Of a DNA stretch of 47,749 nt, positions 1-43,202 are shown piece after piece. How positions within the stretch are numbered: position 1 is the stretch's first letter; each line of letters starts with the position of its first letter. The translations under genes were made by a program, and so were the position numbers. Source of the stretch: a virus. Below the pieces are notes generated by a model. It was not told the DNA's origin, made no database searches, and was given only the letters and a program-made list of their open reading frames with translations. The DNA is taken from IMG/VR virus record IMGVR_UViG_3300045988_059296; one strand, given 5' to 3'.

Positions 1-99
1 CGGCGGGCGAAATCGAATTGACGATGCACATTGAGATTTCCAACGCGGACGCTATCTCTTTTATCATCGACCCGAACGTAGTAACGGCAACAAAAAAAG
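1..99. repeat. Terminal direct repeat, copy 1, identical to 47651-47749. The contig closes into a 47650-bp circle or is terminally redundant.
   Basis: Read directly: the first 99 nt (cggcgggcgaaatcgaattg...gtaacggcaacaaaaaaag) recur exactly as the last 99 nt. Confidence 0.97.
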
Positions 100-521
100 A
101 CATTGAAGACCACGACGCATCGAAGACGGCACACGCCGCAGAGTTTGAGAAAAAAGCAGACGTTACCGACCTAAACGCACACGCGAATAATACGGATATT
201 CATGTAAACCCGTCTACGATGGGAAATTACGACACGGCAATTTCGGGGCTGATCGAACATAAGGAAGATACGAAAATTCATGTGACGGCGGAAGAAAAAG
301 CATCGTGGACGGAGGGTGCAGAGCAGGCGGCGGCGGACGCGAACAGAGTAACCGAAGCGCTTAACGCCATTGCAGGAATTGAAAGCCGCGTTTCTCGCGT
401 GGAAGACGGCCTGTTCAACAACATCACAGGGAACCCGTTTCTTGCGTCCTTTGATTCCCTTGACGGCATCACGCTTGTTAAGGGTATCTGGAACGAAGAA
501 AGAAAGCGCATCGAATGTTGA
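1..521 (+). CDS. Tail fibre protein, C-terminal part. It continues the ORF that starts at 47296 and crosses the contig junction; the joined length is 876 nt, 291 aa.
   Basis: The frame of track ORF 18-521 stays open back to base 3. It is in phase with 47296-47650 once the 99-nt overlap is removed. Repeated SKTAH / NTDIHV / DTKIHV motifs and a coiled C-terminus fit a fibre shaft. Confidence 0.75.
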   Translation, partial: AGEIELTMHIEISNADAISFIIDPNVVTATKKDIEDHDASKTAHAAEFEKKADVTDLNAHANNTDIHVNPSTMGNYDTAISGLIEHKEDTKIHVTAEEKASWTEGAEQAAADANRVTEALNAIAGIESRVSRVEDGLFNNITGNPFLASFDSLDGITLVKGIWNEERKRIEC

Positions 522-745
522 CGGAATATGCCTGCCCGCGGCGGGAACTGTCCTGCATCGTCGGAAACCTGTTCGTCGAACTGGAACCACCCTGCGACCA
601 TTGCGCCGCCGGGGACAGCCTGACGATATGCGGAACGACATACGCCGGGACACGGGCAACGCTGACCGTCACCGAATACGGATTTACCTTTGACGGACCG
701 CCGGAGGAAGTCGAACAAATCCGGGAAAGGCGGTGTCTAAAATAG
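515..745 (+). CDS. Small Cys-rich protein (76 aa) directly after the tail fibre gene. Possibly a fibre assembly factor; function unknown.
   Basis: The ATG overlaps the fibre stop codon (ATGTTGA). It occupies the slot of P2 G-type chaperones. No recognisable motif. Confidence 0.4.
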   Translation: MLTEYACPRRELSCIVGNLFVELEPPCDHCAAGDSLTICGTTYAGTRATLTVTEYGFTFDGPPEEVEQIRERRCLK

Positions 746-1182
746 ACCAGCGACAAACCGAACAAAAGCCCGCACAAGAATTTGCAATCATCACGAAAGC
801 GAAAGATTTAGTCAAGCACACGTTTATGATGACAAGCGAACGGAGATTTCCGAAGAAGTACCGCTTCACCATCGTAAACCGCTTGCACGATTTGACGCTT
901 GACATTTTCCAGCACATACAGGAAGCGAACGAACTTGACCTTACAGACCCGCAGGAATACCGCGAACGGCGCTACGAACAGAAAAAGGCGCTGACAGAGT
1001 GCAAGACGGTTCTTTTCCTGATCGAACTTTCCTTTGAAAAGGAACTTATCTCTTCCGAACAATGCGCGGAATGGACCCGGCACGTTATGAACGTGAAGAA
1101 CATGACGGCAAAGTGGAGGAAGCAGGATAGAGAGCGGTTCGCCGCACTACAACAGAATAGAGGAATCACGCCGCGGCGGTAA
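733..1182 (+). CDS. avd: DGR accessory variability determinant (Avd), a four-helix-bundle protein.
   Basis: 149-aa basic helical protein. The stretch FPKKYRFTIVNRLHDLTLDIFQHIQEAN resembles the Avd / 23S-IVS four-helix-bundle family. It lies immediately 5' of the TR and RT and has a GTG start. Confidence 0.8.
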   Translation: MSKIDQRQTEQKPAQEFAIITKAKDLVKHTFMMTSERRFPKKYRFTIVNRLHDLTLDIFQHIQEANELDLTDPQEYRERRYEQKKALTECKTVLFLIELSFEKELISSEQCAEWTRHVMNVKNMTAKWRKQDRERFAALQQNRGITPRR

Positions 1183-1214
1183 CGCACGGCGTTTTTCTTG
1201 GGGTGCGGCTTGTA

Positions 1215-1309
1215 GCGTCCAACTCTTACAACGTCCGCAACGTCAATTCCTCTGGCGCGATGAACTGGAACAACGCTTACAACGGCAACAACGGCGTTCG
1301 CCCGCTTTG
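1215..1309 (+). repeat. DGR template repeat (TR).
   Basis: A non-coding 95-nt segment between avd and the RT. It is collinear with 3321-3415 and, from 1221, with 16406-16494. It holds 23 adenines and 9 AAC triplets in the VR reading frame. Its 3' end is the A-free GC-rich cggcgttcgcccgctttg. Confidence 0.93.
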
Positions 1310-1413
1310 GTGGAAACCGCGATTGAGTAGGCCGAAAGGCTGAAAACAGAGGACCACTATCAAAGGAAGCCGCATCCCTCCGCCGTGGTGACAGCACGAC
1401 GGTAAATACAAGA

Positions 1414-2673
1414 TTGGTGAAGCAAGGTCCACGGAAACCAGCTTCCGCCCGCCGCGGACGCGCGGCGCGGTCCGATGATGACGCGTTGCGTGCGGCGGGA
1501 GCCGCAGACGCGCAAGGCCGATTCTATACACGGCAAGGAGTTTTTTATACGCAAGGCGCAGAATTCGAGCAGGTATATGATTTCGGGAACCTATACGCGG
1601 GGTTCCTGAAAGCACGCAGGGGCAAGCGACACAAACCCAGCGTTGCAAAATTTGAAGCAAATCTTCTTGAAACCCTATGCCTACTTTCGGAAATGCTGAA
1701 AACCAAAACATACCGACCGTCAGATTATTTCGTTTTCAAGGTCTATGAACCGAAAGAACGAATCGTTATGACGAACGCATTCAAAGACAAGGTGGTTCAA
1801 CATTCCCTATGCGACAACATACTTGAACCCGCGTTTTCAAAAGCCTTTATCCGGGACAACTACGCATCGCAGAGCGGGCGCGGAACACATGACGGGTTAT
1901 ACCGCCTTGAAGAATTCATGCGGTCCTACTACTTCACACGCAAGGCGAACGCCGAGCGGGAGCGGCGGGCCGCGGGATTGCCGCCGCCCGGCCCGGAGGA
2001 AGTGCGGCACTATTCGGACGGCTGGGTTTTGAAATGCGACATATCGAAGTATTTCTATTCAATCCAGCATGAACCGTTAAAGCAGATGACGCGGAAGTAC
2101 ATCAAAGACCCGGATATTCTGTGGTTAGTTGACCTTATCGTTGACAGCACGGAAAATCCGGGAATTCCTATCGGCAACCAGACTTCACAATGGTTCGCCG
2201 TCATGTATCTTTCAGGCATGGACCATTTCATAAAAGAAAAGCTGGGTATTCGCTATTATGGGCGGTACATGGACGATTTCTATTTGATACATGAGGACAA
2301 GGCATATTTGCAATACTGCCGGGGCGAGATCGAACAATACGTTGCCCGGCTGGGCCTGCGGATGAACAAGAAAACAAATATTTTCCCGTTGCGGAACGGT
2401 ATTGATTTCTTGGGCTTCCACACCTACTTGACCGAATCGGGCAAAATCATTCGCAAAGTCCGGCGGTCAAGCAAATGTAACGCACAACGCAAATTGAAGA
2501 AACAGCGCGGTCTACTGGACCGGGAGAAAATCAGCCTTTCAGACATTGAACAGTCATACGGAAGTTGGCGGAGCCACGCCGTAAAGGGAAACTGCTATCA
2601 CCTGATACAGAAAACCGACAGTCTGTTTCAAAATCTATTCAAGGAGAGTGAAAAACAATGGCCCAAAGTTTGA
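1414..2673 (+). CDS. DGR-type reverse transcriptase.
   Basis: PIGNQTSQWFAVMYLSGMDHF (the DGR-typical IGxxxSQ motif), a YMDD catalytic box and SQSGRGTHDG. The start is uncertain: there is no in-frame ATG before the conserved core, so TTG 1414 or GTG 1417 are candidates. Confidence 0.9.
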   Translation: MVKQGPRKPASARRGRAARSDDDALRAAGAADAQGRFYTRQGVFYTQGAEFEQVYDFGNLYAGFLKARRGKRHKPSVAKFEANLLETLCLLSEMLKTKTYRPSDYFVFKVYEPKERIVMTNAFKDKVVQHSLCDNILEPAFSKAFIRDNYASQSGRGTHDGLYRLEEFMRSYYFTRKANAERERRAAGLPPPGPEEVRHYSDGWVLKCDISKYFYSIQHEPLKQMTRKYIKDPDILWLVDLIVDSTENPGIPIGNQTSQWFAVMYLSGMDHFIKEKLGIRYYGRYMDDFYLIHEDKAYLQYCRGEIEQYVARLGLRMNKKTNIFPLRNGIDFLGFHTYLTESGKIIRKVRRSSKCNAQRKLKKQRGLLDREKISLSDIEQSYGSWRSHAVKGNCYHLIQKTDSLFQNLFKESEKQWPKV

Positions 2674-4376
2674 ATGCGCTTGCCGTCGGTGCGCTTGTCA
2701 AAGATACAGGCACGCTTTACAACGGTAAGCCGATCATTTGGAAAATCGCCGACAAGGGACACACGGGCTACCCGTCCGGCGCTGTGACCCTGATTACGGA
2801 GCGCATTATTTCGCTGAAATGCTTTGACGCTATCGAATCCGGCAACAGCGACGGCAACCGCCGCAGTTACGGCAATAACCGTTGGACCCTTTCTAACGTG
2901 CGGCAATGGCTGAACAGTCAGGCCGCCGCCGGGAAGTGGTACAGCGCCCAGCATGGCGCAGACGCGGCCCCGACGAATGCGAACGTATGGAGCAACTACA
3001 ACGAATACGACGCGGAAGCGGGCTTTCTTGCGGGCTTCTCCGCGAACTTCATTGCGGCCCTGCTGACTACGACCCACACCGTAGGCAAGGCGACCGTAGA
3101 CGGCGGCGGTACGGAGAGTTGCGCCGACAAAATCTTCCTTGCGACCTGTACGGAAGTCGGCTTGTCCGGCGACGTGACCGCGGGAAGCAAGCTGGCCTTG
3201 TTCAGCGACGACAATTCCCGTCTTGCCTACCCCACGGCGGAAGCCGTGAGCAAGAGCGAATACACGAACGGCAGTTTCAACGTAAATTCGCCGCGGTATT
3301 GGTGGCTTGCCGACGCTTACGCGTCCAGCTCTTACATCGTCCGCCACGTCAATTCCTCTGGCGCGGTGATCTGGAGCGACGCTTACATCGGCTACCTCGG
3401 CGTTCGCCCGCTTTGTAATTTGTCCTCTGGAATCTTGGTATCTGATAGCCCGGATTCCGACGGAGCATACACGATCATTTGGAACCGCGCCCCCTCGAAG
3501 CCCTCTTCCATCACGGTTCCGTCCAGCGTGCGCGGCGGCGAAAGCCTGTCTATCAGTTGGGGGGCTTCCACGGACGAAGACGGCAATCTTTCCGGCTATA
3601 TCCTCGAACGGCAGGTCAACGGCGGCGCATGGGCGCAGGTATACAAGGGCATCAACCGCAGTTACACAGACGCAATCACGTTCGGCTGGACCTCTGTTGC
3701 GTACCGCGTCAAGGCGTATGACAGCGCGGGCGCGGAATCGGCGTATCAGACCAGCGCGACGCGGACGGTGGTAAACAACCATGCGCCCGTTATCAGCGGC
3801 ACAGATTCCAACTTGGGAACGAAGACCGCCGCGTTCGCGCAGAGTTACAGCGTAACGGACGAAGACAGCGGGCAGACCTTGACCGTGACAGAGTACATCG
3901 ACGGCACGCAGAAGCGTTCCTACACCGCGACAAGCGGACAGACCTATTCATTCAACATCACCGCCGCAGAGTGGGTGAAGCTGTTGAACGGGTCCCATAC
4001 GCTGAAAATCGTTGCGGCGGACAACTACGGCGGAAGCGCGACCCGGACGTATACGTTCACGAAAAATGAAACGGAAATCGAACTTACGCTTGCTACCCCG
4101 CTTACTGCCGACGATATGGTGACAAAGGGTATCATGTCTGTCGTGCGTCAAATTCCAGCAGGTGCAAAATTCACCGTGGAAGTCTGCAACAACGGCAACG
4201 ACGCTTCCCCGACGTGGGAGGACGTGACGCAGAACGTCGTAAGCGGAAGTAAGTTCTTCCTTTCCAACACAACCAAAACGGCGAGCGCTTGGGGCTACAA
4301 TTTCCGCATCAAGGTAAAGCGCGGAACGGCAACGGGCGATTGCTTCATTACGTCTGCGGGAGGTAACTTTGAATGA
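2658..4376 (+). CDS. DGR target protein 1 (572 aa). It has an N-terminal variable ligand-binding domain (YWWL...GVRPLC, C-type-lectin-like / DUF6273-like), an FN3 domain, an Ig-like domain and a C-terminal beta domain. Probably a receptor-binding tail protein.
   Basis: Contains VR1. The FN3-like segment is PSKPSSITVP...WGASTDEDGNLSGYILERQVNGGAW...YRVKAYDSAG. RBS AAGGAG precedes the start. The gene sits between the tail fibre and the lysis cassette. Confidence 0.8.
   Translation: MAQSLNALAVGALVKDTGTLYNGKPIIWKIADKGHTGYPSGAVTLITERIISLKCFDAIESGNSDGNRRSYGNNRWTLSNVRQWLNSQAAAGKWYSAQHGADAAPTNANVWSNYNEYDAEAGFLAGFSANFIAALLTTTHTVGKATVDGGGTESCADKIFLATCTEVGLSGDVTAGSKLALFSDDNSRLAYPTAEAVSKSEYTNGSFNVNSPRYWWLADAYASSSYIVRHVNSSGAVIWSDAYIGYLGVRPLCNLSSGILVSDSPDSDGAYTIIWNRAPSKPSSITVPSSVRGGESLSISWGASTDEDGNLSGYILERQVNGGAWAQVYKGINRSYTDAITFGWTSVAYRVKAYDSAGAESAYQTSATRTVVNNHAPVISGTDSNLGTKTAAFAQSYSVTDEDSGQTLTVTEYIDGTQKRSYTATSGQTYSFNITAAEWVKLLNGSHTLKIVAADNYGGSATRTYTFTKNETEIELTLATPLTADDMVTKGIMSVVRQIPAGAKFTVEVCNNGNDASPTWEDVTQNVVSGSKFFLSNTTKTASAWGYNFRIKVKRGTATGDCFITSAGGNFE
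3321..3415 (+). repeat. DGR variable repeat VR1.
   Basis: 95/95 collinear with the TR and differs at 11 positions, all adenines in the TR. Encodes ASSSYIVRHVNSSGAVIWSDAYIGYLGVRPLC. Confidence 0.93.
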
Positions 4377-6036: not shown

Positions 6037-7617
6037 ATGACACAGGAACAAAAGAAATTCATCGAGCGGGTGGGCGCACTTGCCGCGGCGGATATGCAGA
6101 AAAGCGGGGTCCTCGCGTCCATGACGATAGCGCAAGCAATCCTTGAAAGCGGTTGGGGCAAATCCGGCTTGACGGTCAAGGGAAACGCCCTGTTCGGCAT
6201 CAAGGCCGGGACAAGCTGGACCGGGGCCGTTTACAGCGGCAAAACGCAAGAGTGCTACGACGGCGTGACCTTTACGACCGTGACGGGCCTTTTCCGGGCC
6301 TATGGCAGTTGGGCGGAAAGCGTCGCCGATCATTCCGACTTGCTTTCGTGCAATGCCCGCTATAAAGCGGTCATCGGGGAGCGGGACTATAAAGCCGCGT
6401 GCCGGGCAATCGCCGCGGCGGGCTATGCGACCGACCCGAAGTATGCCGACAAACTGGTTCAAATCATCGAAGCATACGCCCTGACCGCCTACGACGGCGC
6501 AGGAAGCGCCGCAAAGCCCGGCGGTTCAAATACCACGGCGGGGGTCACAAGCCCCGCAGACGCGAAAGGAGCAGGCAAAATGAAAGCGTCTGAATTTATC
6601 AACAAATTGCAAAACATTGTGGACAACTATAAAACGCTGTACGTCATGGGCTGTTTCGGCGCACCACTGACGGGCGCGAACGTGTCCCGCTATTGCACAA
6701 ATCACAGGTACAACAAGCAGGCCGCGCGAACGGCGATGATTCGGGCGGCGGCGGATAAGAACCCGCCCGTCTACGGGTTCGACTGCGTATGCCTTATCAA
6801 AGGCGTTCTTTGGGGTTGGAGCGGAAACGCCGCGAAGCCATACGGCGGCGCGGCCTATGCTTCTAACGGCATTCCCGATCTTGGGGCCGACACCATGATT
6901 ACGAAGTGTTCCGGCGTGTCCGCTGATTTCAGCGGCATTGTTCCGGGTGAAGCTGTCTGGTTGCCCGGTCATATCGGCGTATACATCGGCGGCGGAAAGG
7001 TCATCGAATGTTCGCCCGCTTTCAAGAACTGCGTGCAGGTGACGGCGTGCCTGAACATTGGCACTATTTCCGGCATGAACGGGCGCAAGTGGACGAAGCA
7101 CGGGAAGTTGCCGTACATCACCTACGACACCGCAGGCGGCGCACAGGACGGCGCAGGAAGCACAACAAAGCCCAGCGGCACAACTACCACCCCGGCGACG
7201 CTTGCGTTCGCTGTGGGCGACGTGGTGCGCTTTACGGGCAACACCCATTACACCAACGCGGCGGCGGCAAGCGGCGCGGCCTGCAAGCCGGGAACGGCAA
7301 AGGTAACGGCGCTTGCAAAAGGCGCAAAGCACCCCTACCACCTTATCAAACAGCCCGGCGGCGGTTCTACCGTTTACGGCTGGGTCAATGCGGCGGACGT
7401 GCAGGCCGTCGGGAGCGGTACGACCGCGCCGAAAATGCGCGTCGGTGCAAAGGTGAAGTATTCCGGCCCGCTGTACCGTGACAGCAACGGCGGCGGACAG
7501 GGTAAGACTGTGAACGGAACGTACACAGTGAAGTATTACTATCCGGGCCGCAAGTGCGGCGTACACATCGACGGTTTGGGCTGGGTCCCTGAATCCGGCT
7601 GTACCGTCATTGGCTGA
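6037..7617 (+). CDS. Endolysin made of a GH73 N-acetylglucosaminidase domain, an NlpC/P60-like cysteine peptidase domain and two SH3-like cell-wall-binding repeats.
   Basis: GH73-type: TIAQAILESGWGKSGL...ALFGIK...YATDPKYADKL. Cys/His peptidase-like: GFDCVCLIKG...GHIGVYIGGGKVIE. Two C-terminal repeats of about 60 aa end in GWV. Confidence 0.85.
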   Translation: MTQEQKKFIERVGALAAADMQKSGVLASMTIAQAILESGWGKSGLTVKGNALFGIKAGTSWTGAVYSGKTQECYDGVTFTTVTGLFRAYGSWAESVADHSDLLSCNARYKAVIGERDYKAACRAIAAAGYATDPKYADKLVQIIEAYALTAYDGAGSAAKPGGSNTTAGVTSPADAKGAGKMKASEFINKLQNIVDNYKTLYVMGCFGAPLTGANVSRYCTNHRYNKQAARTAMIRAAADKNPPVYGFDCVCLIKGVLWGWSGNAAKPYGGAAYASNGIPDLGADTMITKCSGVSADFSGIVPGEAVWLPGHIGVYIGGGKVIECSPAFKNCVQVTACLNIGTISGMNGRKWTKHGKLPYITYDTAGGAQDGAGSTTKPSGTTTTPATLAFAVGDVVRFTGNTHYTNAAAASGAACKPGTAKVTALAKGAKHPYHLIKQPGGGSTVYGWVNAADVQAVGSGTTAPKMRVGAKVKYSGPLYRDSNGGGQGKTVNGTYTVKYYYPGRKCGVHIDGLGWVPESGCTVIG

Positions 7618-9111: not shown

Positions 9112-9138
9112 CTTGTCACCCCCTTTCTTTATGCTCTT

Positions 9139-9167
9139 ATTATATACTAACGTTAGTATAAAGTCAA
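9139..9167 (-). promoter_or_regulatory. Leftward promoter TTGACT-N17-TATAAT whose spacer holds the perfect 18-bp palindrome TATACTAACGTTAGTATA (9143-9160).
   Basis: The minus strand reads ttgact ttatactaacgttagta tataat. Confidence 0.7.
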
Positions 9168-9263
9168 TAGGGAAAATGCGAAAAAGCAGAAAAATTTTGC
9201 GCCGTTGCGGTAGATACAGCGGCGCGAAAAGGGAGCGGCGGAAACCGCCGCCCCGGTAAAGCG

Positions 9264-9981: not shown

Positions 9982-10020
9982 GTTGGAATGATGCACAAAT
10001 ATACTAACGATAGATTGTAC

Positions 10021-11609: not shown

Positions 11610-11630
11610 CGCATTTTGGGAGGTTATAGC

Positions 11631-15502: not shown

Positions 15503-15695
15503 TTTGAAGCGGGCTTTCATGGACGAACGCCCGGTACGGTACAACGGCATCACCTACCAGCGAGTAACAGCGGTGATTTACCGCAAGACCCCGGACAAAA
15601 CCGGGTTGCTGGTACAAGGTGAACTGCTGGACAAGAACGGACGTGCCGTTATGATCGCGGCGGCGGAGCGAATCAAAGTGGAGGAACCGAAATGA
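15480..15695 (+). CDS. Hypothetical protein (about 70 aa). The start is GTG 15480 or GTG 15489.
   Basis: Track ORF that fills a gap in a tightly packed operon. Confidence 0.55.
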   Translation: MCPVTTADLKRAFMDERPVRYNGITYQRVTAVIYRKTPDKTGLLVQGELLDKNGRAVMIAAAERIKVEEPK

Positions 15696-16003
15696 CACAA
15701 GAGATTATCACAATCACCGTTGAAGCCGGGCAAATGACCGCCCGGCGGAAGTCCCGGAAAATCGCCCAGCGCCGCCCGGTCCCCGTGTGGGCTATCGTGA
15801 AGTATGCGGCCCTGACGATTGCCGGAATTATGCTGTTTCGTGAGGGCGCGGCCCGTGCGCTGGCCTACCGGGGCTATTTCGCCGTCGGCGGAGAGGTTTT
15901 CGCCCTCTTCCTCCCGGTTTTCTATTACTGCCTTTCACGGACGGTCCGGGACCTTATCACGGACATTAAGAACGGCTTCAAGCCGGAATATGAGGAGGAC
16001 TAA
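15692..16003 (+). CDS. Small membrane protein (103 aa, 2 TM segments) directly upstream of DGR target 2.
   Basis: VWAIVKYAALTIAGIMLF and VFALFLPVFYYCL segments. ATGA coupling upstream, and 3 nt from the next start. Confidence 0.65.
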   Translation: MTQEIITITVEAGQMTARRKSRKIAQRRPVPVWAIVKYAALTIAGIMLFREGAARALAYRGYFAVGGEVFALFLPVFYYCLSRTVRDLITDIKNGFKPEYEED

Positions 16004-16006
16004 ACC

Positions 16007-16744
16007 ATGAAGAAAATTTCGCAGATCGAAACGGGCGGGCGCTTCCTGTATGGCGGAATTGAGTGGGTCAAGCTGTACGCAGGCGACGGAACCGTTGCGA
16101 TTTCCGCCGAACCCGTCTTTGAACGCGCTTTCGACGAAAACAACAAGAACGATTGGCGTTCTTCTTCCATGCGCCGCGAACTGAACGGCGCGTTCCTCGA
16201 CGCGCTGGTTGCAGAGGGCGCGGACCGGGCGGCGTTCCTCGATTGGGAAAGCGACCTGACCGCCGATGACGGCATGACCGACTACGGGACCGCCACCGAC
16301 AAAATCGCTTTGCTGTCGGACAAACTGTATAGAATGTTCCGCGGCATTATCCCGCGCGTGGACGCGTGGTGCTGGAACCTGACCCCGTGGACGTGCGACC
16401 CCGAATACTCTTACAGCGTCCGCTACGTACATTCCTCTGGCGCGATGGACTGGGGCTACGCTTACAGCGGCTACCTCGGCGTTCGCCCGCTTTGCTATCT
16501 GAAATCCGAAATCTTGGTATCTGTCCCCGGAGAGGACGACGAAGAGAAAAACGTTGAAGTCGCCGAAGAGGACCGCGCACAGCTTGTTCTTATCGCAAGC
16601 GACAGAATTTTGAATGCACTGAATGAATACCCCGTGGAAGTTTGGGGCGAAGCGCTGGGCGCGGCTGTGGCTTCTCTGTTCACGTCGAAGCAGGACGCGG
16701 CGCAGATCGCGCAGGAAGACAAAGACAAAGCGGCGGAGGTCTGA
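16007..16744 (+). CDS. DGR target protein 2 (245 aa). It has the same WWL/GVRP-type variable domain as target 1, followed by an acidic C-terminal tail, and is encoded in the early/non-structural region.
   Basis: Contains VR2. It shares domain landmarks with target 1 (W..S.MRRELNGAFL, ...HSSGAMDWGYAYSGYLGVRPLCYL). RBS GAGGAGG. No signal peptide. Confidence 0.8.
   Translation: MKKISQIETGGRFLYGGIEWVKLYAGDGTVAISAEPVFERAFDENNKNDWRSSSMRRELNGAFLDALVAEGADRAAFLDWESDLTADDGMTDYGTATDKIALLSDKLYRMFRGIIPRVDAWCWNLTPWTCDPEYSYSVRYVHSSGAMDWGYAYSGYLGVRPLCYLKSEILVSVPGEDDEEKNVEVAEEDRAQLVLIASDRILNALNEYPVEVWGEALGAAVASLFTSKQDAAQIAQEDKDKAAEV
16406..16494 (+). repeat. DGR variable repeat VR2, remote from the DGR cassette.
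   Basis: 89 nt collinear with TR 1221-1309. 12 substitutions fall at TR adenines and there is one C-to-A change (TR 1244). Confidence 0.9.
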
Positions 16745-16810: not shown

Positions 16811-17083
16811 AAGCGGGTTCCGCCGATGAAAATATATCAGCTATCAACCTACCGTTAGTATATCAAAAACGGCGGAAAAAGTCAACAAATAACGCCGTTT
16901 TTGCGCGGCGTGGCGGGCTTGTAATGGGTATTAACGTTCCTGCGATTAGCCTTGTCACGCATGACAACAGGACCGGGAAGAAAGACACGTCCTATCTGGT
17001 GTTCTTCCCACCTGCATAGACAACTACACACGCCGGAAGTAAAGCCCCGCCCGCTTCCTCTACCCGCAAAAGGAGTGAAGCAA

Positions 17084-17905
17084 GTGCGAAGTTTTATGAG
17101 AGAAAAGAAAATCTACTGCGGAAAGCATTATCGGGAGGTAGATATATACCCCTACACCGCCGCGCAACTGACAGCATCTACGCGCGGGAAGAGGTCAAAG
17201 AAAATCAAGGAAACGGAGCCGAAGCAAAAGAACCTGAATGACAAGAACGCCAGCCGCTACTTCACGCAGACGGCGAACCTGAATTTCGGTTCTGACCCGG
17301 AAGCCCTGCACGTTACAGCTACATACAGCGGAAAATATCTGCCCGACACGGTGGAACAGGCCGAACAGGAAGCAACAAACTTCCTACGCCGGGTCCAGTA
17401 CCGCCGGAAGAAAGAGGGCTTGCCGCCGCTAAAGTACATGATCGTTACCGCCTACACCACGAAGCGAAACAGCGAAGCCCCCGTTCGTATTCATCACCAC
17501 ATCATTATGAACGGCGGGCTTGACCGTGACGTTGTGGAAGACCTGTGGAGAAAACGCAGGCGCAAGGGACAGAAAAAGGGCGACAAAATCGGCTTTTGTA
17601 ATGCTGACCGCCTGCAAGCCGATGAAAACGGCATAGCCGCCCTTTGCACCTACCTTGTGAAGCAGGGGTGCGGGAAAAAGCGGTGGAATTCCTCGCATAA
17701 CCTCGAAAGGCCGTACAGCCGGACGAACGACGGCAAGTACAATCGCCGTCAGATTGAGAAGTGGGCGAAAGAACACCCGCCCCGTGAGTTTTGGGAAAAG
17801 AAATATCCCGGCTGGACCCTGACAGACGATGACTACGGCGTTCAGTACGAATACAACGACTTCACGGGCTGGGCGGTCTACCTGAAATTGCGAAAGAAAG
17901 AGTAA
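17084..17905 (+). CDS. HUH-superfamily rolling-circle Rep-like initiator (about 273 aa).
   Basis: Motif order LHVTATYS (motif I-like), VRIHHHIIMNGG (HUH), ALCTYLVKQG (YxxK). GTG 17084 lies 8 nt after AAAGGAG; the alternative start is ATG 17096. Confidence 0.6.
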   Translation: MRSFMREKKIYCGKHYREVDIYPYTAAQLTASTRGKRSKKIKETEPKQKNLNDKNASRYFTQTANLNFGSDPEALHVTATYSGKYLPDTVEQAEQEATNFLRRVQYRRKKEGLPPLKYMIVTAYTTKRNSEAPVRIHHHIIMNGGLDRDVVEDLWRKRRRKGQKKGDKIGFCNADRLQADENGIAALCTYLVKQGCGKKRWNSSHNLERPYSRTNDGKYNRRQIEKWAKEHPPREFWEKKYPGWTLTDDDYGVQYEYNDFTGWAVYLKLRKKE

Positions 17906-27949: not shown

Positions 27950-28444
27950 GTGAAACTTTACGACGTGCGGGCGATTGCCCGGTTTCTGGACGTGTCAGAA
28001 CGGCGTGTCCGGCAGTTGCGCGACGAAAAAGTGATAGCGGAGGTTCGCCCCGGCCTGTATGACCTGATCGACACGAACCACCGCTATATTAACTACCTCC
28101 GAAAGCGAAACCCGGAGGGCGACGAAACCATAGATTACAACACGGAGCGGGCGAAGCTGGTTCGGGCGAAGCGCAAAAACGAAGAGTACGAATTGCAGTT
28201 GAAAGAAAATCAGCTTCACGCGGCGGAGGACATCGAAGCCGTTATGACTGATATGTTGGTAAACTTCAAATCCCGGCTTATGGCGATTCCCTCGAAGCTG
28301 GCCCCGGTCCTTTGTAAAAAGACGGACAAGGCGGAAATTTTCGCCCTGCTGAAAGACCACATCGACGAAGCGTTGATGGAACTTTCGGACTTCAAAGCAA
28401 CATTCGGGGAAAGGGTGAAAGAAGATGAAAAAAGCGACGGTTGA
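27950..28444 (+). CDS. terS: Terminase small subunit, Nu1-like.
   Basis: N-terminal winged HTH (IARFLDVSERRVRQLRDEKVI) followed by coiled-coil. GTG start after GGGAGGGGTG. It overlaps the start of the GpA-type large subunit. Confidence 0.6.
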   Translation: MKLYDVRAIARFLDVSERRVRQLRDEKVIAEVRPGLYDLIDTNHRYINYLRKRNPEGDETIDYNTERAKLVRAKRKNEEYELQLKENQLHAAEDIEAVMTDMLVNFKSRLMAIPSKLAPVLCKKTDKAEIFALLKDHIDEALMELSDFKATFGERVKEDEKSDG

Positions 28445-30245
28445 CCTGTTCACCCGCATTTTCTCCGTTCTGGCCCCGCCCCCCAACATGACCGTTTCAC
28501 AATGGGCGGACAAATACCGCCGCTTGTCCTCCGAATCATCGGCAGAGCCGGGGCGATGGCGCACGTCAAAGGCCCCGTATCAACGCGAAATCATGGACGC
28601 AGTATGCGACATGAGGGTTCAGAAAGTCGTTATCATGTCCGCGGCGCAGATCGGTAAAACCGACGCGCTTATATTAAATCCTATCGGCTACTATATGCAC
28701 TACGACCCGTCACCGATTATGGTTATGCAACCAACTATTCAGATGGCGGAAACATTCAGCAAAGACCGTCTTTCACCTATGTTGCGCGATACCCCGGTTC
28801 TGCGCGACAAGGTGAACGACAAAAGCCGGAACAGCGGCAACACCATTTTGCAAAAAATCTTTCCGGGCGGTCATGTAACGATGGTAGGCGCAAATTCGCC
28901 GTCGTCCCTTGCGTCCCGCCCTATCCGTATTCTGCTTGCGGACGAAATCGACCGATACCCGGCGACGGCGGGCAACGAGGGCGACCCTCTGTTACTTGCC
29001 GGAAAGCGTCTTGCGACGTTTTGGAATAAAAAAGAAGTCTGCGTTTCGACCCCTACCAACAAGGAAACGTCCCGCATCGCTGTTGAATTTGAACACAGCA
29101 CGCAAGAAGAATGGAACGTACCTTGTCCGGCCTGCGGAGCATTCACGCCCCTATTGTGGGCGAACATCGTATTTGACCGGGACAAGCTGGACGAAATCGG
29201 CTGTACCTGCCCGGCCTGCGGCGTGGTTTCCAGCGAAACGGAGTGGAAAGAACAGTACATCAACGGAAAATTCGTTGCGGCCCACCCGGAACGAAAGGTC
29301 CGGGGCTTCCACCTAAACGCCCTTGCTTCCCTGTTCGTGGATTGGCGGGAAATCGTTGAAAAGTTCCTGACTGCGAACGAAGAGAAGAAAAAAGGCAACA
29401 TCGAACTTCTGAAAGTCTGGACAAATACCGAAATGGGCGAAACGTGGGAAGAGGACGGAGAACAGATCGAAACGGACGACCTCTACAAGCGCCGCGAAAA
29501 GTATAATTGCGAAGTGCCGGAAGAAGTTCTTGTGCTGACGGCGGGCGTTGACGTTCAGGACGACCGTTTTGAAGCGGAAGTCGTCGGCTGGGGCGTGGAC
29601 AAGGAAAGTTGGGGCATCAAGTATCAAGTCATTTACGGCGATTTGAAGCTAAAGCCCGTATGGGACGAACTGGACCGCTTTCTTTCACAGACGTTCACAA
29701 CGGCAGACGGAAGACACCTGAAAATCATTTGCGCCTGCGTCGATTCCGGCGGACACTTCACGACGCAGGTTTACCGCTTCTGCAAGGAGCGGACAGCCCG
29801 CCGCGTGTTTGCAATCAAGGGCAAGGGCGGCGCGGAAGTCCCGTACTTCAACCGACCGTCAACGGCAAACAACATCAAAACCCCGCTTTTTACCGTGGGC
29901 GTTGATACAGGCAAGGCGCTTTTATATCAGCGTTTGGCGGTGCAGGAAGAGGGGCCGAATTACTGCCACTTCCCGCGGGAGAAAGACCGGGGATATACGC
30001 AGGAATACTTCAAGGGCCTAACCGCCGAAAAAATGGTTATCAGCTACAAGCGGGGCAAAGCACAATACGTCTGGACCCTGAAAGACGGCGGCTACAAGCG
30101 AAACGAGCCGTTGGACATTCGGAACTATGCGACCGTCGCGCTGGAAATCGCAAACCCGATTTTGAAGCCGCCGGAGCATGACACCACCGCACCCGCCCCG
30201 CGGCGGCGCGGCAGGCGTTCACGGACGAACGGAGGAATTCTATAA
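28425..30245 (+). CDS. terL: Terminase large subunit, lambda GpA family.
   Basis: 606 aa. VSQWADKYRRLSSESSAEPGRWRTSKAPYQREIMDA, a Walker-A-like AAQIGKTD, and Zn-finger-like CPACG...CPACG. Confidence 0.9.
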   Translation: MKKATVDLFTRIFSVLAPPPNMTVSQWADKYRRLSSESSAEPGRWRTSKAPYQREIMDAVCDMRVQKVVIMSAAQIGKTDALILNPIGYYMHYDPSPIMVMQPTIQMAETFSKDRLSPMLRDTPVLRDKVNDKSRNSGNTILQKIFPGGHVTMVGANSPSSLASRPIRILLADEIDRYPATAGNEGDPLLLAGKRLATFWNKKEVCVSTPTNKETSRIAVEFEHSTQEEWNVPCPACGAFTPLLWANIVFDRDKLDEIGCTCPACGVVSSETEWKEQYINGKFVAAHPERKVRGFHLNALASLFVDWREIVEKFLTANEEKKKGNIELLKVWTNTEMGETWEEDGEQIETDDLYKRREKYNCEVPEEVLVLTAGVDVQDDRFEAEVVGWGVDKESWGIKYQVIYGDLKLKPVWDELDRFLSQTFTTADGRHLKIICACVDSGGHFTTQVYRFCKERTARRVFAIKGKGGAEVPYFNRPSTANNIKTPLFTVGVDTGKALLYQRLAVQEEGPNYCHFPREKDRGYTQEYFKGLTAEKMVISYKRGKAQYVWTLKDGGYKRNEPLDIRNYATVALEIANPILKPPEHDTTAPAPRRRGRRSRTNGGIL

Positions 30246-33566: not shown

Positions 33567-34622
33567 ATGGCTATCGAAACAACTATTTACACCACGCGCA
33601 CGCTGGGTAAGCTGATTACCAGAATGCCCCCCGTGCATACCTTTTTCCGCGATACCCTGTTCAAGAACCGCCGCACTTTCCCCACGAAGAGCGTTGACGT
33701 TGACTTCAAGAAAGGAAGTCGCGCCCTCGCACCGTTCGTTCACCCGAAAGTCGGTGGCAAGGTGGTTCCGAACAGCGGCTATCAGACGAAGACTTACACC
33801 CCCGTTCTGCTGGCCCCTGACAAAATCACCACCGTTGACGACCTGCTGAACCGTTCTGCGGGTGAAAACCCGTACAGCGGCAGGACCCCCGCGGAGCGTG
33901 CCGTTGAGAAGCTGGCGGACGACCTGCGCGAACTGAACGAAATGATCGTGCGCCGCGAAGAGTGGATGGCGGCTACCGCCATTTTCACCGGGCAGATTCC
34001 CATTATCGGCGAGGGCCTGAACGAAGTCATCGACTTTGACTTCACCAACAAGGAAACCATCGTCAGCGCCGAAAAGAAGTGGAACGCCGATACTTCCGAC
34101 CCGCTGGGCGATTTGGAGCGCTGGCGCGAAGCCGTCCAGAAAGAGGGCTTTGTGAACTGCAATATCTGCATCATGGCAAAGGACGTTGCGAACGCCTTTG
34201 TGAACAATGCAAAGGTCAAGTCCGTTTTGGACGTTCGCGCCTATGATTTGGCAGTTATCAAGCCCCGCGAACTGCCGAACGGCCTTACTTACATCGGAAC
34301 TATCCATAAGCTGGGCCTTGACATCTACCAGTACAACGAGTGGTATCTGGACAACTGGACCAACCCCAACGCCCCGACGCAGAAGCCGCTTGTTCCTGAC
34401 GGCACGCTTGCCCTGCTGTCTACCGAAGCGGAGTATTCCATCTACTACGGCGCAATCACCATGATTCCCGAAGAGGGTAAGACGTTTGTTACCGTGGAGG
34501 GCGACCGCGTGCCGCAGACGTGGGTTGAGCGCCGCCCGGACCGCCGCTTCCTGCAAGTCAACAGTAAGCCGCTGACCGTTCCCCATGAGGTCAATAGCTG
34601 GTACGTTGCAAAGGTCCTGTAA
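33567..34622 (+). CDS. Major capsid protein, lambda gpE family.
   Basis: 351 aa. TRTLGKLITRMPPVHTFFRDTLF...SVDVDFKKGSRALAPFVHP is characteristic of the gpE-like N-terminus. Confidence 0.85.
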   Translation: MAIETTIYTTRTLGKLITRMPPVHTFFRDTLFKNRRTFPTKSVDVDFKKGSRALAPFVHPKVGGKVVPNSGYQTKTYTPVLLAPDKITTVDDLLNRSAGENPYSGRTPAERAVEKLADDLRELNEMIVRREEWMAATAIFTGQIPIIGEGLNEVIDFDFTNKETIVSAEKKWNADTSDPLGDLERWREAVQKEGFVNCNICIMAKDVANAFVNNAKVKSVLDVRAYDLAVIKPRELPNGLTYIGTIHKLGLDIYQYNEWYLDNWTNPNAPTQKPLVPDGTLALLSTEAEYSIYYGAITMIPEEGKTFVTVEGDRVPQTWVERRPDRRFLQVNSKPLTVPHEVNSWYVAKVL

Positions 34623-36561: not shown

Positions 36562-37992
36562 ATGGCAAACTATTTTCACGGCGTTTCGACGCGTCAGAAC
36601 GACACGTCGATTTCTACCCCTGTAACCGCTGATTCTGGTATTGCGTTCGTCGTCGGCGCGGCCCCAGGTCATACCGTGGGCGGCGCACCGAACGACCCTA
36701 TCATGTGTCAGTCTTACGCGGAAGCCGTCGCCGCTTTGGGGTATAGCGACGATTGGGAGAAGTACCCAATCTGTGAAGCTATCTATTCGCAGTTCAAGCT
36801 GTACGGCGTGGCCCCTGTGGTGTTCGTGAACGTGCTTGACCCTGCGAAGCACAAGAAGAGCGTCGCAGAACAGAACTACCCCGTCGCAGACGGAAAAGTT
36901 CTGCTTCCCCTCGAAGCCCTGAAAAACACGGTCAAGGTGACAAGCTACACCGCCGGGACCGACTATGAACTTTTCTATGAGGGTGAAAACCTGATTCTTG
37001 AAGTTCTGGACGGCGGCAGTATTTCCGCTGAAACGGGAGAACTGACAATCACGTTCGACGCGGTGGACCCCTCCAAAATCAACGAAAACGACATTATCGG
37101 CGGTTTCGATACCAGCACGAAGAAGTATTCCGGTCTTGAACTGATCGACAAGGTTTTTCCGAAATACGGCATCGTCCCCGACCTTATCGTTGCCCCCGGC
37201 TGGTCCGACAAGTCCAATGTCGCGGCGGTTATGACCGCAAAGGCGGATGCAATCAACACCGTGTTCACGGGTGCAAAAGCCCTGATCGACGCGGACACAA
37301 ACACCGTTCGCCACTACGCGGACGTTCCCGCATGGAAGAAAGCACAGAACATGAACAGCAAGGCGGAAATTCTCTGCTGGCCTATGTTCGGGCTGGGCGA
37401 CCGTGCGTTTCATGCGTCCGTCCACGCCGCGGGCCTGATGGGAAAGACCGATTCGGACAACGGCGGTTGCCCGGCGGAAAGCCCGTCGAACAAGTCATTG
37501 CAGATCGACCGCGCTATGCTTGCGGACGGAACGACTGTGCTTCTCGATCTCGCGCAGGCAAACTACCTGAACAGTAACGGTATCGTTACGGCGCTGAACT
37601 TCATTGGAAGCTATGTGCTGTGGGGCGATGAAACCGCCTGCTTCCCCGCCGATACGGACGTGAAGAACTACTTCATTTCCGTTTCCCGTATGTTCGGTTG
37701 GGTTGCCCGTTCTGTCATTCTTACTTATTGGAGCAAGATCGACAAGAAAATGACGCGCCGCCTTATCGACAGCATCGTTGATTCCGTAAACATTTGGCTG
37801 AACGGCCTTGTTTCGGAAGAAAAGCTGTTGGGCGCACGCGTGGAGTTTCTGGACGAAGAGAACAGCACGACCGCGCTTATGGCGGGCAAGGCTGTTTTCC
37901 ATATCTACATGACCCCCGCAAGCCCCATGAGGGAATGCGAATTCGTCCTTGAATACGACGCGGACTATGTGACTGCGGCGCTGTCGGCGTAA
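36562..37992 (+). CDS. Contractile tail sheath protein.
   Basis: 476 aa. N-terminus YFHGVSTRQNDTSISTPVTADSGIAFVVG. RBS AAGGAGG. Followed by the tube gene. Confidence 0.85.
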   Translation: MANYFHGVSTRQNDTSISTPVTADSGIAFVVGAAPGHTVGGAPNDPIMCQSYAEAVAALGYSDDWEKYPICEAIYSQFKLYGVAPVVFVNVLDPAKHKKSVAEQNYPVADGKVLLPLEALKNTVKVTSYTAGTDYELFYEGENLILEVLDGGSISAETGELTITFDAVDPSKINENDIIGGFDTSTKKYSGLELIDKVFPKYGIVPDLIVAPGWSDKSNVAAVMTAKADAINTVFTGAKALIDADTNTVRHYADVPAWKKAQNMNSKAEILCWPMFGLGDRAFHASVHAAGLMGKTDSDNGGCPAESPSNKSLQIDRAMLADGTTVLLDLAQANYLNSNGIVTALNFIGSYVLWGDETACFPADTDVKNYFISVSRMFGWVARSVILTYWSKIDKKMTRRLIDSIVDSVNIWLNGLVSEEKLLGARVEFLDEENSTTALMAGKAVFHIYMTPASPMRECEFVLEYDADYVTAALSA

Positions 37993-42900: not shown

Positions 42901-43202
42901 CGCAGACGGGAAGCATCTTCCGCAATCTTGCGGACACGGTGAACGCTATTCGCACCGCAGGGGCCGCGCCGTATCAACTGGCCTACGCGGGAGCGCCCAG
43001 CGTTGCCGCACCGACCCTGAACGCAGGCGGCGGCAGAACGTCCGTCGTCATTCACAGCGCACCCGTGTTCCACGTCGGCAACGACGCGCAGGCACAGGAC
43101 ATTGAAGAAATGCTACGCCGCCACGACGAAGAGTTGTTGGACGAAATCGACGAGCGGGAGCGGCAAAGACAGGACGACGAAAGGCGGCGGAACTATGACT
43201 AA
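39903..43202 (+). CDS. Tail tape measure protein.
   Basis: 1099 aa with an N-terminal coiled-coil, a central Ala/Gly-rich TM-like region, and a position after the chaperone. RBS GGGAGGGAGG. Confidence 0.9.
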   Translation: MAGRKEYELLFKLQAALGGNFNTVFQSALNTTKQMQNSLTKLNSITGKIDAYKKQEAALESNRQKLERLTAEHDKLQREMSETAAPSEELRQKMAKNEKQIAATTAKIEAQEQRLQTLGSELSAAGVNTANLSAENERLAKTYDKVKKSQEEIAKVNTALEQNNTSISNTKTQLAGVIGTAAALGAAIYAGPVKKSRELEAQMSTVKAISNATTEDMTRLTDMAKHMGATTQFTAVEAGKALEYMAMAGWKTDQMLGGLPGIMNLAAASGEDLGQVSDIVTDALTAFNMTADQSGRFADVLAQASSNANTNVSMMGATFQKVAPVAGTLGYSVEDMSLGIGLMANASVKAETAGTSLKTALANMAKPTKQMQAYMDKYGISLTNADGSMKTFREVIDNLRSSLGGLSKTEKTAAATAIFGKESFAGMLAIVNASDADFKKVSDAVNNAAGAAERMAAIKLDNLEGDVTLLKSATDGLQTAIGDALLPTFRAGTQQLTKFVSNLTEFINANPELVRTIVKVTAGLLAFKAAALTAKLGFLELKGGVLTIQKVMALFKGKTALAGVEAVGFAGKVKGVAKSVTGYFSGIGSAAGGVGRAFGQMFSGTKIGGAFSKIGGAAGGVFSKLFSGMGGVATRAFTGVAGTITNILGKAGTAVTAGPLGKIGSVIGKGFGKIGTLIAPLQKLGGAILGPFSGILGKVLPVVGVISLIVAAVQILRDNLDKVREVVERVFGKAGLDVFNGIVDAITNIGDTIRNIFTDGNLGGARQFLINLFGEEATGVIDGAITILQTVWNILSGFIEFVNTYVRPIVEQIFSFIVGTVLPQIAQAFAEWAPTIASILQGLAEVVSTIATAIMAVIQFLMPTIQSIIGVALETIKGVVSGALTAIKGLVDVFAGIFTGDWTRVWEGVKSIFSGVWNSLKSIASGVLNGIIGLVNNVISGLNNLKVPDWVPGIGGKSINIPLIPRFATGTDSTPNTFIAGEQGAELITNAKNRSVFTAAQTGSIFRNLADTVNAIRTAGAAPYQLAYAGAPSVAAPTLNAGGGRTSVVIHSAPVFHVGNDAQAQDIEEMLRRHDEELLDEIDERERQRQDDERRRNYD

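Follow-up and report, generated by a model that had tools for sequence, protein, structure and literature searches.

Evidence for a single-template, two-target diversity-generating retroelement in a phage genome

The viral DNA analysed here (IMG/VR record IMGVR_UViG_3300045988_059296; 47,749 nucleotides, referred to below as the window) almost certainly carries a phage diversity-generating retroelement (DGR) in which one template repeat (TR) serves two recipients. This reading is supported by the DGR components themselves, by the adenine-specific pattern of differences between the repeats, by the invariance of the TR and the hypervariability of VR1 and VR2 across independent genomes, and by the structure of the spacer RNA. 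The contig is circular with a length of 47,650 bp, since bases 1-99 are equal to bases 47651-47749, and the DGR is located, as had been noted in the first-pass annotation, between a tail fibre gene that spans the circular junction and the lysis cassette, where a DUF4376 protein and membrane proteins are encoded in addition to the endolysin (Table 1). The same annotation had described a complete DGR at 733-4376; every testable component of it has been found, but a second target some 15 kb away had been overlooked, and with it VR2, a third copy of the repeat that lies outside those coordinates. It should be pointed out that the two-target type of DGR to which the element belongs has already been published for human-gut phages.

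Table 1. Features of the DGR and its surroundings in the window.
Feature	Position	Strand	Remarks
Tail fibre gene	47296..47650 joined to 1..521		291 aa; spans the circular junction
avd (accessory variability determinant)	733..1182	+	149 aa; GTG start
GC-rich hairpin	1168..1199	+	GTAA loop holds the stop codon of avd; a T-run and an invariant TTGGGGT come next
TR (template repeat)	1215..1309	+	95 nt in register with VR1; between avd and RT
TR part matching VR2	1223-1309	+	In register with VR2
Spacer (Sp) of DGR RNA	1310..1548	+	Structured, non-coding; terminal motif CTATACACGGCAAGGAG contains the Shine-Dalgarno site of the RT (1535-1540)
DGR reverse transcriptase (RT)	1549..2673	+	Start set by homology, giving 374 aa with ACG as codon 1; mechanical ORF reaches upstream to TTG 1414
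Target 1	2658..4376	+	572 aa; N-terminal DUF6273, then FN3 and tail-fibre-like region (C-terminal part)
VR1	3321..3415	+	Residues 222-253 of target 1
Conserved 12-nt block ATCTTGGTATCT	3432..3443	+	Downstream of VR1, 16 nt past the end of TR homology
Glucosaminidase endolysin	6037..7617		526 aa; downstream of the DGR
Target 2	16007..16744	+	Small DUF6273 protein of 245 aa; replication/early module
VR2	16408..16494	+	87 nt, corresponding to TR 1223-1309; within target 2
Conserved 12-nt block ATCTTGGTATCT	16511..16522	+	Downstream of VR2; same as after VR1
Replication initiation protein	16952..17905		Next gene after target 2

The repeats and their variation

Realignment of TR and VR1 returned the coordinates proposed earlier, with 95 nt on each side, no gaps and 11 mismatches, which fall on exactly the positions previously listed (TR 1222, 1231, 1239, 1260, 1264, 1270, 1272, 1282, 1287, 1290 and 1291) and at each of which the TR base is an A. 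Given 23 adenines in 95 positions, the hypergeometric probability of finding every one of the 11 mismatches at an A is 1.7e-8. A recount also reproduced these 23 adenines and the nine AAC triplets of the first-pass annotation; in the VR1 frame (frame 0 of the ORF at 2658..4376) the TR further contains one AAT, one ATG and two TAC codons. VR2 differs from the TR at 12 positions, 11 of which are TR adenines, the exception being C1244, which adjoins A1245. As the TR adenines are mostly in AAC codons, only about 13 codons of VR1 and 12 of VR2 are open to change, and no stop codon can arise; a codon-table calculation puts the number of possible protein variants at up to ~3e13 for VR1 and ~2e12 for VR2.

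The first-pass annotation had proposed that polymorphism be examined at population level. When variability was compared between independent genome assemblies, no variation was found in the TR among those related loci in which it is covered, and VR1 varied in the related genomes at 21 of 23 A-templated positions versus 1 of 72 others (Fisher p 9e-18), with a similar picture for VR2 in 23 genomes (21/21 A positions versus 5/66 others; p 9e-16). In each of 50 related loci, some of which are prophages in Oscillospirales genomes, a VR was detected that differs from the TR at 6-19 positions, in nearly all cases ~2.1 kb downstream of the TR, and by our tally 559 of the 591 mismatches (~95%) are at TR adenines. 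Clearly, the lineage has been diversifying.

With regard to the ends of the repeats, the last 18 nt of the TR (CGGCGTTCGCCCGCTTTG) lack A, have a G+C content of 72% with five T, and are identical in TR, VR1 and VR2, the sequences diverging directly afterwards. The first-pass annotation had compared this end to an IMH element; its A-free, GC-rich and identical nature stands, but the likeness to the IMH of BPP-1 is only loose. Moreover, the 18-mer cannot mark the recipient because it is identical in the TR and the VRs. The BPP-1-type arrangement, consisting of a 3' IMH in the VR, a differing IMH* in the TR and a downstream DNA hairpin, was not observed, and a search for such a hairpin detected no inverted repeat of at least 7 bp within 40 nt downstream of VR1 or VR2; this combination defines the BPP-1 subtype and not DGRs in general. 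The 12-nt block ATCTTGGTATCT that follows both VRs is absent after the TR. Among 47 unique sequences, conservation at its third codon positions is 91-100%, and rare codons are retained throughout (GTA in 47/47). The block is a candidate determinant of the recipient site.

Avd, the structured spacer and the reverse transcriptase

The Avd-like ORF that had been noted beside the TR is indeed related to known Avd proteins, as it matches phrog_3206 ('Avd protein of DGR', E 8.9e-32) and, over the full profile length and below the curated cutoffs, NF033474 DivGenRetAVD (E 1.6e-8, profile 2-104 of 104) and PF22296 bAvd (E 1.2e-4); gene calls in related contigs likewise give a length of 149 aa. A terminator-like site was flagged at 1181-1193, within the hairpin that surrounds the avd stop codon. 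This hairpin folds at the same place in 20 of 20 relatives, with dG values of -17 to -24 kcal/mol in 19 of them and -12.7 in the remaining locus (L130), and its stem sequences differ between clades. It represents either an intrinsic terminator or attenuator, or a 5' boundary element of the DGR RNA.

For the spacer, an alignment of 29 sequences (A2) yielded 44 predicted pairs, with 98.1% of cells paired. Eleven of these pairs have changed on both sides, versus 3.8 +/- 1.2 in shuffled alignments (0 of 500 shuffles reach 11) and 2-4 pairs with two-sided changes in slid controls. These comparative data demonstrate a conserved RNA structure, as predicted from the aligned sequences. The candidate pairing between the TR end and the Shine-Dalgarno site exhibits one-sided changes only, and neither a priming adenosine nor a TR:Sp duplex was identified in the spacer analysis. 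Positions 1313-1427 match the Rfam motif RT-2 (RF03077) with 21.1 bits (E 0.0085), and the same spacer position is matched in two related loci (L110, 29.2 bits; L109, 24.7 bits), all below the gathering score of 40 that sets membership; the likeness is one of resemblance only. Like the spacer, RT-2 is found immediately upstream of an RT gene, and both contain a GNRA-capped hairpin (GAGUAGGCC-GAAA-GGCUGAAA), AAAGGA, UCCCU and a second hairpin followed by UAAA; on the other hand, the match bypasses 122 consecutive positions of the model, and the spacer adds 3' helices and a hairpin of variable length. A DGR function for RT-n motifs apart from RT-10 has been put forward as a speculation by Weinberg et al. 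(2017, PMC5737381).

The RT ORF contains the IGNQTSQ and YMDD motifs reported in the first-pass annotation, which fit [ILV]GxxxSQ and YxDD, and it matches phrog_1423 with an E value of 1e-132. A closer affinity to group II intron or retron RTs, named there as the outcome that would count against a DGR, was not found as judged by match scores: Bordetella bRT (PDB 8ub7), whose residue numbering agrees with the cryo-EM paper, scores 121.7 bits (E 3.3e-34), as compared to 40 bits for a group II RT and 39 bits for a retron-type RT (E ~1e-9 or worse).

The start codon of the RT bears on the present state of this particular copy. Codon 1549-1551 is ACG in this genome and ATG in 59/59 relatives; at position 1550, C is found here versus T in 10/10 near-identical loci, and the start is ATG in 49/49 IMG/VR relatives, in both sets with a conserved AAGGAG site 8 nt upstream. 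Since ACG replaces ATG, the DGR of this copy may at present be expressed at a low level or not at all. There is a substantial, if somewhat less than even, chance that this is a DGR by descent that is now off or strongly attenuated, in which the change from ATG to ACG would cut RT translation and leave VR1 and VR2 frozen. This possibility is compatible with the two-target DGR explanation and concerns its present state only. It is favoured by the fact that the C at 1550 is unique to this genome and that a second genome-unique change, an A at position 1186, weakens the conserved avd-stop hairpin (-18.1 versus -22.0 in L067); in addition, DGR-bearing Faecalibacterium phages without read-level activity have been published, as have related phages that kept both targets after loss of the DGR (PMC11792537; 10.1101/2024.10.15.618418). 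However, no other damage is seen in the RT ORF, which shares 98% identity with relatives that look active, and its frame stays open upstream as far as TTG 1414, GTG 1417 and TTG 1486 (no obvious Shine-Dalgarno site was seen by eye before these in-frame TTG/GTG codons). In addition, near-cognate initiation at ACG can occur at a low level when a strong Shine-Dalgarno site precedes it, DGRs need little RT, and the change is a single base in one assembly that could be a sequencing or consensus error.

The two target proteins

Target 1 matches PF19789 at residues 43-256 (E 9e-31), phrog_10993 over its full length (E 1e-244) and, among PDB entries, an FN3 domain at 272-366 and a 'Tail fiber protein' chain at 362-489. 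It therefore has the features of a tentaclin, namely an N-terminal DUF6273 that bears the VR, followed by Ig-like/Fn3 domain(s). An AlphaFold2 model of residues 1-270 (pLDDT 95) matches the solved DUF6273 domain 9qa6 in Foldseek (E 4e-15), and the weak tail of its matches includes the C-lec/FGE-fold proteins TvpA, FGE and CD23. In this model VR1 corresponds to strands 227-231 and 237-241 together with the surrounding loops, and the variable codons, predicted to be placed on these two beta-strands and loops at the C-terminal end of DUF6273, presumably make up a ligand-binding face.

Target 2 matches PF19789 at residues 128-167 (E 7e-7) and phrog_9958 (E 7e-64); its structure model has a pLDDT of 48 and is unusable. 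Its position in the replication module, with the replication initiator directly downstream, and the lack of structural-module neighbours raise the question of whether it is an early-expressed non-structural protein, diversified for a purpose other than adsorption, for example with a function within the infected or lysogenic cell or at the cell membrane, instead of a virion receptor-binding protein. A small ORF 3 nt upstream, membrane-protein-like by eye, and the failure to see a signal peptide on target 2, also by eye, point in the same direction, as does the finding that tgt2 of phage nd4, only 41% identical, likewise adjoins a replication gene. Nevertheless, such a role appears unlikely: gene position alone gives no expression timing, no matches of target 2 to defence or anti-defence families were found, the C-lec-type DGR targets characterized so far are surface or virion binding proteins, such as BPP-1 Mtd, and a receptor-binding role is favoured in the literature (PMC10743442; PMC11792537; 10.1101/2024.10.15.618418).

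Known systems and proposed mechanism

The closest arrangement among the systems compared is that of the gut myophages nd4 and nd12 (Baykov et al. 2023, PMC10743442; OR777945, OR777946), which share the contractile-tail background, the order avd, TR, RT and target 1, a tentaclin (569-579 aa; 572 here) whose N-terminal DUF6273/C-lec domain precedes Fn3/Ig domains and whose VR falls within the first half, and a small DUF6273-only second target of 234-294 aa (245 here) several kb away. In nd4, VR2 is also shorter than VR1 and covers 21 adenines, and target 2 adjoins a replication gene. Differences consist of a cassette DNA identity of only ~65-68%, target 1 identities of 58% (to nd4 tgt1, full length) and 50%, target 2 identities of 41-43%, 23 TR adenines as compared to 25 and 28, and the ACG start of the RT; PMC10743442 makes no mention of the spacer RNA structure, of a hairpin at the avd stop or of a 12-nt block after the VRs. 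The Faecalibacterium phages Lelie, CP11 and Toutatis also combine one TR with two VRs, one in a large and the other in a small DUF6273 protein, each where the DUF6273 domain ends C-terminally, and both VRs have been found to be hypervariable between cognate genomes, the second target being a core gene at some distance from the cassette, 17.5 kb in Toutatisvirus (PMC11792537; 10.1101/2024.10.15.618418). These phages are more distant (target 2 ~31% identical to the Lelie and Toutatis homologues; target 1 matched only in its C-terminal third, at ~39-40%), and the host differs, being Faecalibacterium in those phages and probably an Acutalibacter or Oscillibacter-type member of the Oscillospirales here.

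The prototype BPP-1 (mtd-avd-TR-brt) likewise has Avd and a bRT-type RT with I-G-x-x-x-S-Q and YMDD. In both systems the changes from TR to VR are adenine-specific and the template codons rich in AAC, a structured non-coding spacer separates TR and RT, and the target is a phage binding protein. In contrast, the target of BPP-1 lies upstream of avd (target 1 is downstream of the RT here), its single VR is at the extreme C-terminus of Mtd (an internal VR and a second, remote target are found here), and its spacer is 140 nt with an RT-10 motif (~239 nt and RT-2-like here); neither a G/C-only IMH nor a post-VR hairpin was seen in the window, and RT identity is low, at a match level of E 3e-34.

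The notion that the repeats are ordinary paralogous coding repeats or recombination/assembly artefacts, and that the RT belongs to an unlinked retroelement (group II intron, retron or defence RT), could draw on the true paralogy of targets 1 and 2, which have a DUF6273 C-terminal segment in common, and on NCBIfam, which lacks a DGR RT model and gives a group II intron RT/maturase as best match along with several DRT models, but it is extremely improbable and effectively refuted, given that these matches are far under the cutoffs (95.6 bits versus 300) and cover the palm region only, that bRT is much the best solved relative, that Rfam revealed neither intron RNA domains nor retron msr/msd, and that the TR copy between avd and RT is non-coding and invariant and the bias of mismatches towards adenines recurs in 50 related loci.

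According to the two-target DGR explanation, an RNA would be transcribed across the avd 3' end, the TR and the structured spacer, and the RT with Avd would copy the TR into cDNA, misincorporating opposite template adenines. The cDNA would then replace the homologous VR1 in the tentaclin-type protein encoded directly downstream of the RT, and also VR2 in the small DUF6273 protein 15 kb off in the replication module; cis-priming by the spacer, the Avd requirement and the homing step are inferred by analogy with Bordetella BPP-1. In conclusion, a DGR of this kind rewrites one short stretch of two binding proteins through error-prone reverse transcription.

Template repeat, variable repeats and retroelement proteins

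The first-pass annotation described a complete diversity-generating retroelement (DGR) with one target gene; the DGR stands, while the number of targets has to be raised to two, the second holding a further variable repeat. The template repeat (TR) and the variable repeat of target 1 (VR1) align without gaps over 95 nt, and their 11 mismatches, at TR positions 1222, 1231, 1239, 1260, 1264, 1270, 1272, 1282, 1287, 1290 and 1291, all fall on adenines of the TR, exactly as had been claimed; given 23 adenines in 95 positions, the chance of this distribution is 1.7e-8. When read in the frame of target 1, the TR contains nine AAC codons, as annotated, and also one AAT, one ATG and two TAC, and the final 18 nt of both repeats are A-free, identical and 72% G+C. 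A whole-window repeat search revealed a third copy, VR2, which corresponds to TR 1223-1309 and differs from it by 12 mismatches, 11 of them at adenines and the exception (C1244) adjoining the mutated A1245. VR1 and VR2 of the window carry the same substitutions at TR 1270, 1287, 1290 and 1291, so that both read GGC TAC CTC GGC; one shared cDNA behind the two repeats was considered and rejected, since identity at four of eight co-mutated sites, with 2.7 expected, is not significant.

DGR activity was judged by comparing independent assemblies. Among the window and six related loci, seven genomes of about 98% identity, VR1 is variable at 21 of 23 adenine-templated positions versus 1 of the other 72 (Fisher p 9e-18), and among 23 genomes VR2 is variable at 21/21 adenine versus 5/66 other positions (p 9e-16), with three or four bases seen at most of the former. 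The TR itself has no variable position among all related loci that include it. On a wider scale, a VR was found in 50 related loci, among them prophages of Acutalibacter, Oscillibacter, Dysosmobacter and 'Firmicutes bacterium CAG:124' genomes, nearly always about 2.1 kb 3' of the TR and with 6-19 mismatches to it; by our own tally over these loci, TR adenines account for 559 of 591 mismatches. The anticipated restriction of variation to A-templated VR positions is thus borne out between genomes, and an invariant TR together with adenine-directed VR variation indicates that both VRs have been repeatedly diversified from the TR in this lineage. In one related locus (L066), which encodes a 100% identical reverse transcriptase (RT), the TR is missing: a contig junction limits its similarity to the part of the window from 1489 on.

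Regarding the proteins, Avd covers the DivGenRetAVD and bAvd profiles in full, with scores under their curated cutoffs, and the closest solved relative of the RT is chain 8ub7_A (E 3.3e-34). This chain is identified as bRT, the RT of Bordetella phage BPP-1, because its numbering (D138, I181-G182, Q187 and D215-D216) is that of the bRT-Avd-RNA cryo-EM study. A group II intron, retron or defence RT was also considered, and the top NCBIfam match is indeed a group II RT/maturase (95.6 bits against a cutoff of 300), which is explained by NCBIfam having no model for DGR RTs. The NCBIfam and PADLOC matches are partial and far under cutoffs, Rfam returned no intron or retron RNA, and group II intron and retron RTs reach only E of about 1e-9 or worse against 3.3e-34 for bRT, by far the best match, so an affinity with either class, which would have spoken against a DGR, is not seen in these searches. 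With adenine-only TR/VR1 mismatches, a bRT-like RT and an Avd match in its support, we identify the element as a DGR with high confidence.

Features of the DGR and of the phage genome that carries it, with positions in the window
Feature	Position	Description
avd	733..1182	PHROG 3206 'Avd protein of DGR', E 9e-32
avd-stop hairpin	1168-1199	GC-rich; avd stop codon in GTAA loop
TR	1215-1309	template repeat
Spacer	1310-1548	non-coding RNA stretch between TR and RT
RT start codon (by homology)	1549-1551	ACG
Target 1	2658..4376	572-aa tentaclin-type protein
VR1	3321-3415	in target 1
ATCTTGGTATCT after VR1	3432-3443	12-nt block
Repeat family, four copies of ~36-40 nt	9137-9176, 9953-9988, 10021-10060, 11505-11544	palindrome-like core TATACTAACGTTAGTATAAA
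IS30-like DDE gene	11598-12680	HTH_38 + rve
103-aa ORF	15692..16003	
Target 2	16007..16744	245-aa small DUF6273 protein
VR2	16408-16494	in frame in target 2
ATCTTGGTATCT after VR2	16511-16522	12-nt block
Linker patch of target 2	16547-16636	acidic, with indels
Replication initiator	16952..17905	
Large terminase	28425..30245	
Major head protein	33567..34622	
Sheath	36562..37992	
Tape-measure protein	39903..43202	

The phage genome and its two target proteins

Bases 1-99 of the window are repeated at 47651-47749, which indicates a circular contig and a genome size of 47,650 bp (G+C 54.8%). Gene content is that of a phage with a contractile tail and P2-type baseplate genes, and the cassette is flanked, as annotated, by the tail fibre gene on one side and lysis genes on the other. 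The sole integrase-like gene seen encodes an IS30-like DDE protein whose position is kept in related contigs, and which could be a phage integrase or a resident insertion sequence; the four repeats of the TATACTAACGTTAGTATAAA family, near HTH and integrase genes, may be operators or regulator binding sites. A near-identical prophage for host assignment was not found among species-representative genomes, which contain only relatives with an RT identity of 76-83%, in Oscillospirales.

In target 1, an N-terminal DUF6273 domain (E 9e-31) precedes an FN3 domain and a region resembling tail fibres. Residues 1-270 (window 2658-3467) were modelled with AlphaFold2 (pLDDT 95, pTM 0.92), and the model matches the N-terminal DUF6273 domain of ThomasA, an IgA peptidase of Thomasclavelia ramosa (9qa6, E 4e-15, TM 0.72); this domain is not needed for IgA cleavage and is without known function. 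In this model VR1, which encodes residues 222-253, spans strands 227-231 and 237-241 and the surrounding loops.

The DUF6273 match of target 2 is limited to its VR-bearing end (E 7e-7), and the protein is a member of phrog_9958, of unknown function. A PDB profile search gave only a marginal match, to the same IgA peptidase (E 0.08), an exact-sequence look-up returned no match, and defence-system families matched neither target 2 nor its neighbours; an AlphaFold2 model was left unused (pLDDT 48, from a shallow alignment of 28 sequences). The gene stands among early genes, directly 5' of the replication initiator and with a Holliday-junction resolvase nearby. In phage nd4 (L135, 4001-5408) the homologous target 2 likewise lies directly 5' of a replication gene, and the protein is 41% identical to that of the window (43% for nd12). 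It is preceded, after a 3-nt gap, by the 103-aa ORF, whose sequence suggests a membrane protein. A second variable patch of target 2, the linker, carries a 12-residue duplication in one related protein (P0129); its changes are not targeted to adenines and bear no relation to the TR.

In two contigs, L134 and L017/L069 (IMGVR_UViG_3300029574_000041), target 2 lies only about 3-3.7 kb 5' of the RT; in the former (Logan SRR22463324_31368, 3979-5133) it is directly joined to Tail_P2_I and tail fibre genes at a junction where some 30 kb with replication and structural genes is missing. Both contigs are probably deletion derivatives or chimeric assemblies. The 'fusion' of target 2 to the baseplate domain Tail_P2_I in a related protein (P0130) was rejected as a clue to function, since that contig skips about 30 kb from target 2 into the tail genes, which points to a deletion derivative or a chimeric assembly that is uninformative in this respect. 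We consider it unlikely that target 2 is an early non-structural protein, expressed with the replication genes, rather than a virion receptor-binding protein. If this were true, one DGR would act on two kinds of protein, an adhesin of the virion and a factor working inside the cell or on the membrane side, and target 2 might counter variable host defences or mediate superinfection exclusion.

Spacer RNA, recipient sites and the RT start codon

An alignment of 29 spacers yielded a consensus structure of 44 pairs with 98% of cells paired, in addition to a hairpin that is variable in length and sequence. Eleven pairs have changed on both sides, versus 3.8 +/- 1.2 in shuffles (0/500) and 2-4 in slid controls. 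Rfam returned matches to the RT-2 motif (RF03077), all sub-threshold and always directly 3' of the TR, scoring 21 bits in the window (1313-1427), 29 in L110 (3343-3503) and 25 in L109 (3331-3491), the last two being distant relatives. It has been reported that RT-10 is located in the BPP-1 spacer, and the authors speculated that RT-n motifs apart from RT-10 function in further DGRs (Weinberg et al., PMC5737381). Since the sub-threshold matches lie directly after the TR, RT-2 RNAs may be spacers of DGRs.

Upstream of the TR, a U-run and an invariant TTGGGGT come after the avd-stop hairpin. This hairpin is present in 20/20 relatives tested, with folding energies of -17 to -24 kcal/mol in 19 of them and -12.7 in the remaining one (L130), while its stem sequences differ between clades; an A at 1186, unique to the window, weakens it from -22.0 to -18.1 kcal/mol. 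Since MAFFT moved the arm registers between clades, these hairpins were folded sequence by sequence and a column-wise covariation count was dropped. The hairpin could be a terminator or attenuator, or a counterpart of the BPP-1 'cPRT stop'.

No BPP-1-type hairpin or cruciform with arms of at least 7 bp was found within 40 nt after the VRs. The block ATCTTGGTATCT stands 16 nt past the end of homology of both VRs, and no copy of it follows the TR. Its synonymous sites are conserved, the rare codons being fixed among 47 unique related sequences (GTA 47/47, TCT 45/45, TTG 42/42) beside conserved residues with mixed codons. The DNA itself therefore seems to be under constraint, and the block is a candidate signal for the recipient site. 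Its pairing with an invariant spacer segment, AAAUACAAGAUUGG, was rejected, since shuffled sequences give duplexes just as stable (p 0.5-0.66) and a change in one relative goes uncompensated.

The mechanical start of the RT ORF is TTG 1414, and RTs of relatives that are 65-99% identical start 45 codons later, the closest opening with MQGAEFEQ. The start codon so defined is ATG in each of the 59 relatives examined but ACG in the window, position 1550 being T in 10/10 near-identical loci. A conserved AAGGAG site lies 8 nt 5' of it, and in all 49 IMG/VR relatives the ATG is preceded by the conserved motif CTATACACGGCAAGGAG. The window copy therefore probably makes little or no RT, and functional attenuation of its DGR is a tentative reading to which we give somewhat less than even weight. 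The ACG may represent a natural 'off' or 'low' DGR allele, or a sequencing error.

Relation to two-target DGRs of gut phages

Among deposited records, phages nd12 and nd4 come closest; their cassettes share 65-68% DNA identity with that of the window, and their tentaclins are 50% and 58% identical to target 1, respectively. It has been shown that in these phages one TR serves a VR in the N-terminal C-lec/DUF6273 domain of tentaclin and a shorter VR2 in a small DUF6273-only protein (Baykov et al. 2023, PMC10743442), and the two-VR design has also been described in Faecalibacterium phages Lelie and CP11 and in Toutatisvirus (PMC11792537; 10.1101/2024.10.15.618418). Since the nd4/nd12 system matches exactly, the DGR type of the window was already known, and the window adds one genome to a class described in 2023-2024, namely phages of gut Clostridia with one template and two DUF6273 targets. 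A term search of the papers on nd4/nd12, Lelie/CP11 and Toutatisvirus did not find the spacer RNA structure, its resemblance to RT-2, the avd-stop hairpin, the post-VR block or the ACG allele.

Knowledge of DGRs in general is unchanged, and the value of this element lies in its details. A link between the spacer and RT-2 would assign a function to an orphan Rfam motif, ATCTTGGTATCT provides a testable candidate recipient mark for DGRs that lack the BPP-1 homing element (IMH) and hairpin, and the ATG-to-ACG change, as a naturally occurring candidate 'off' or 'low' state, bears on the regulation or loss of DGR activity. In human-gut data the family is very common, with more than 15,000 member sequences in one target-2 cluster, and therefore offers a natural series for studying two targets served by one template.
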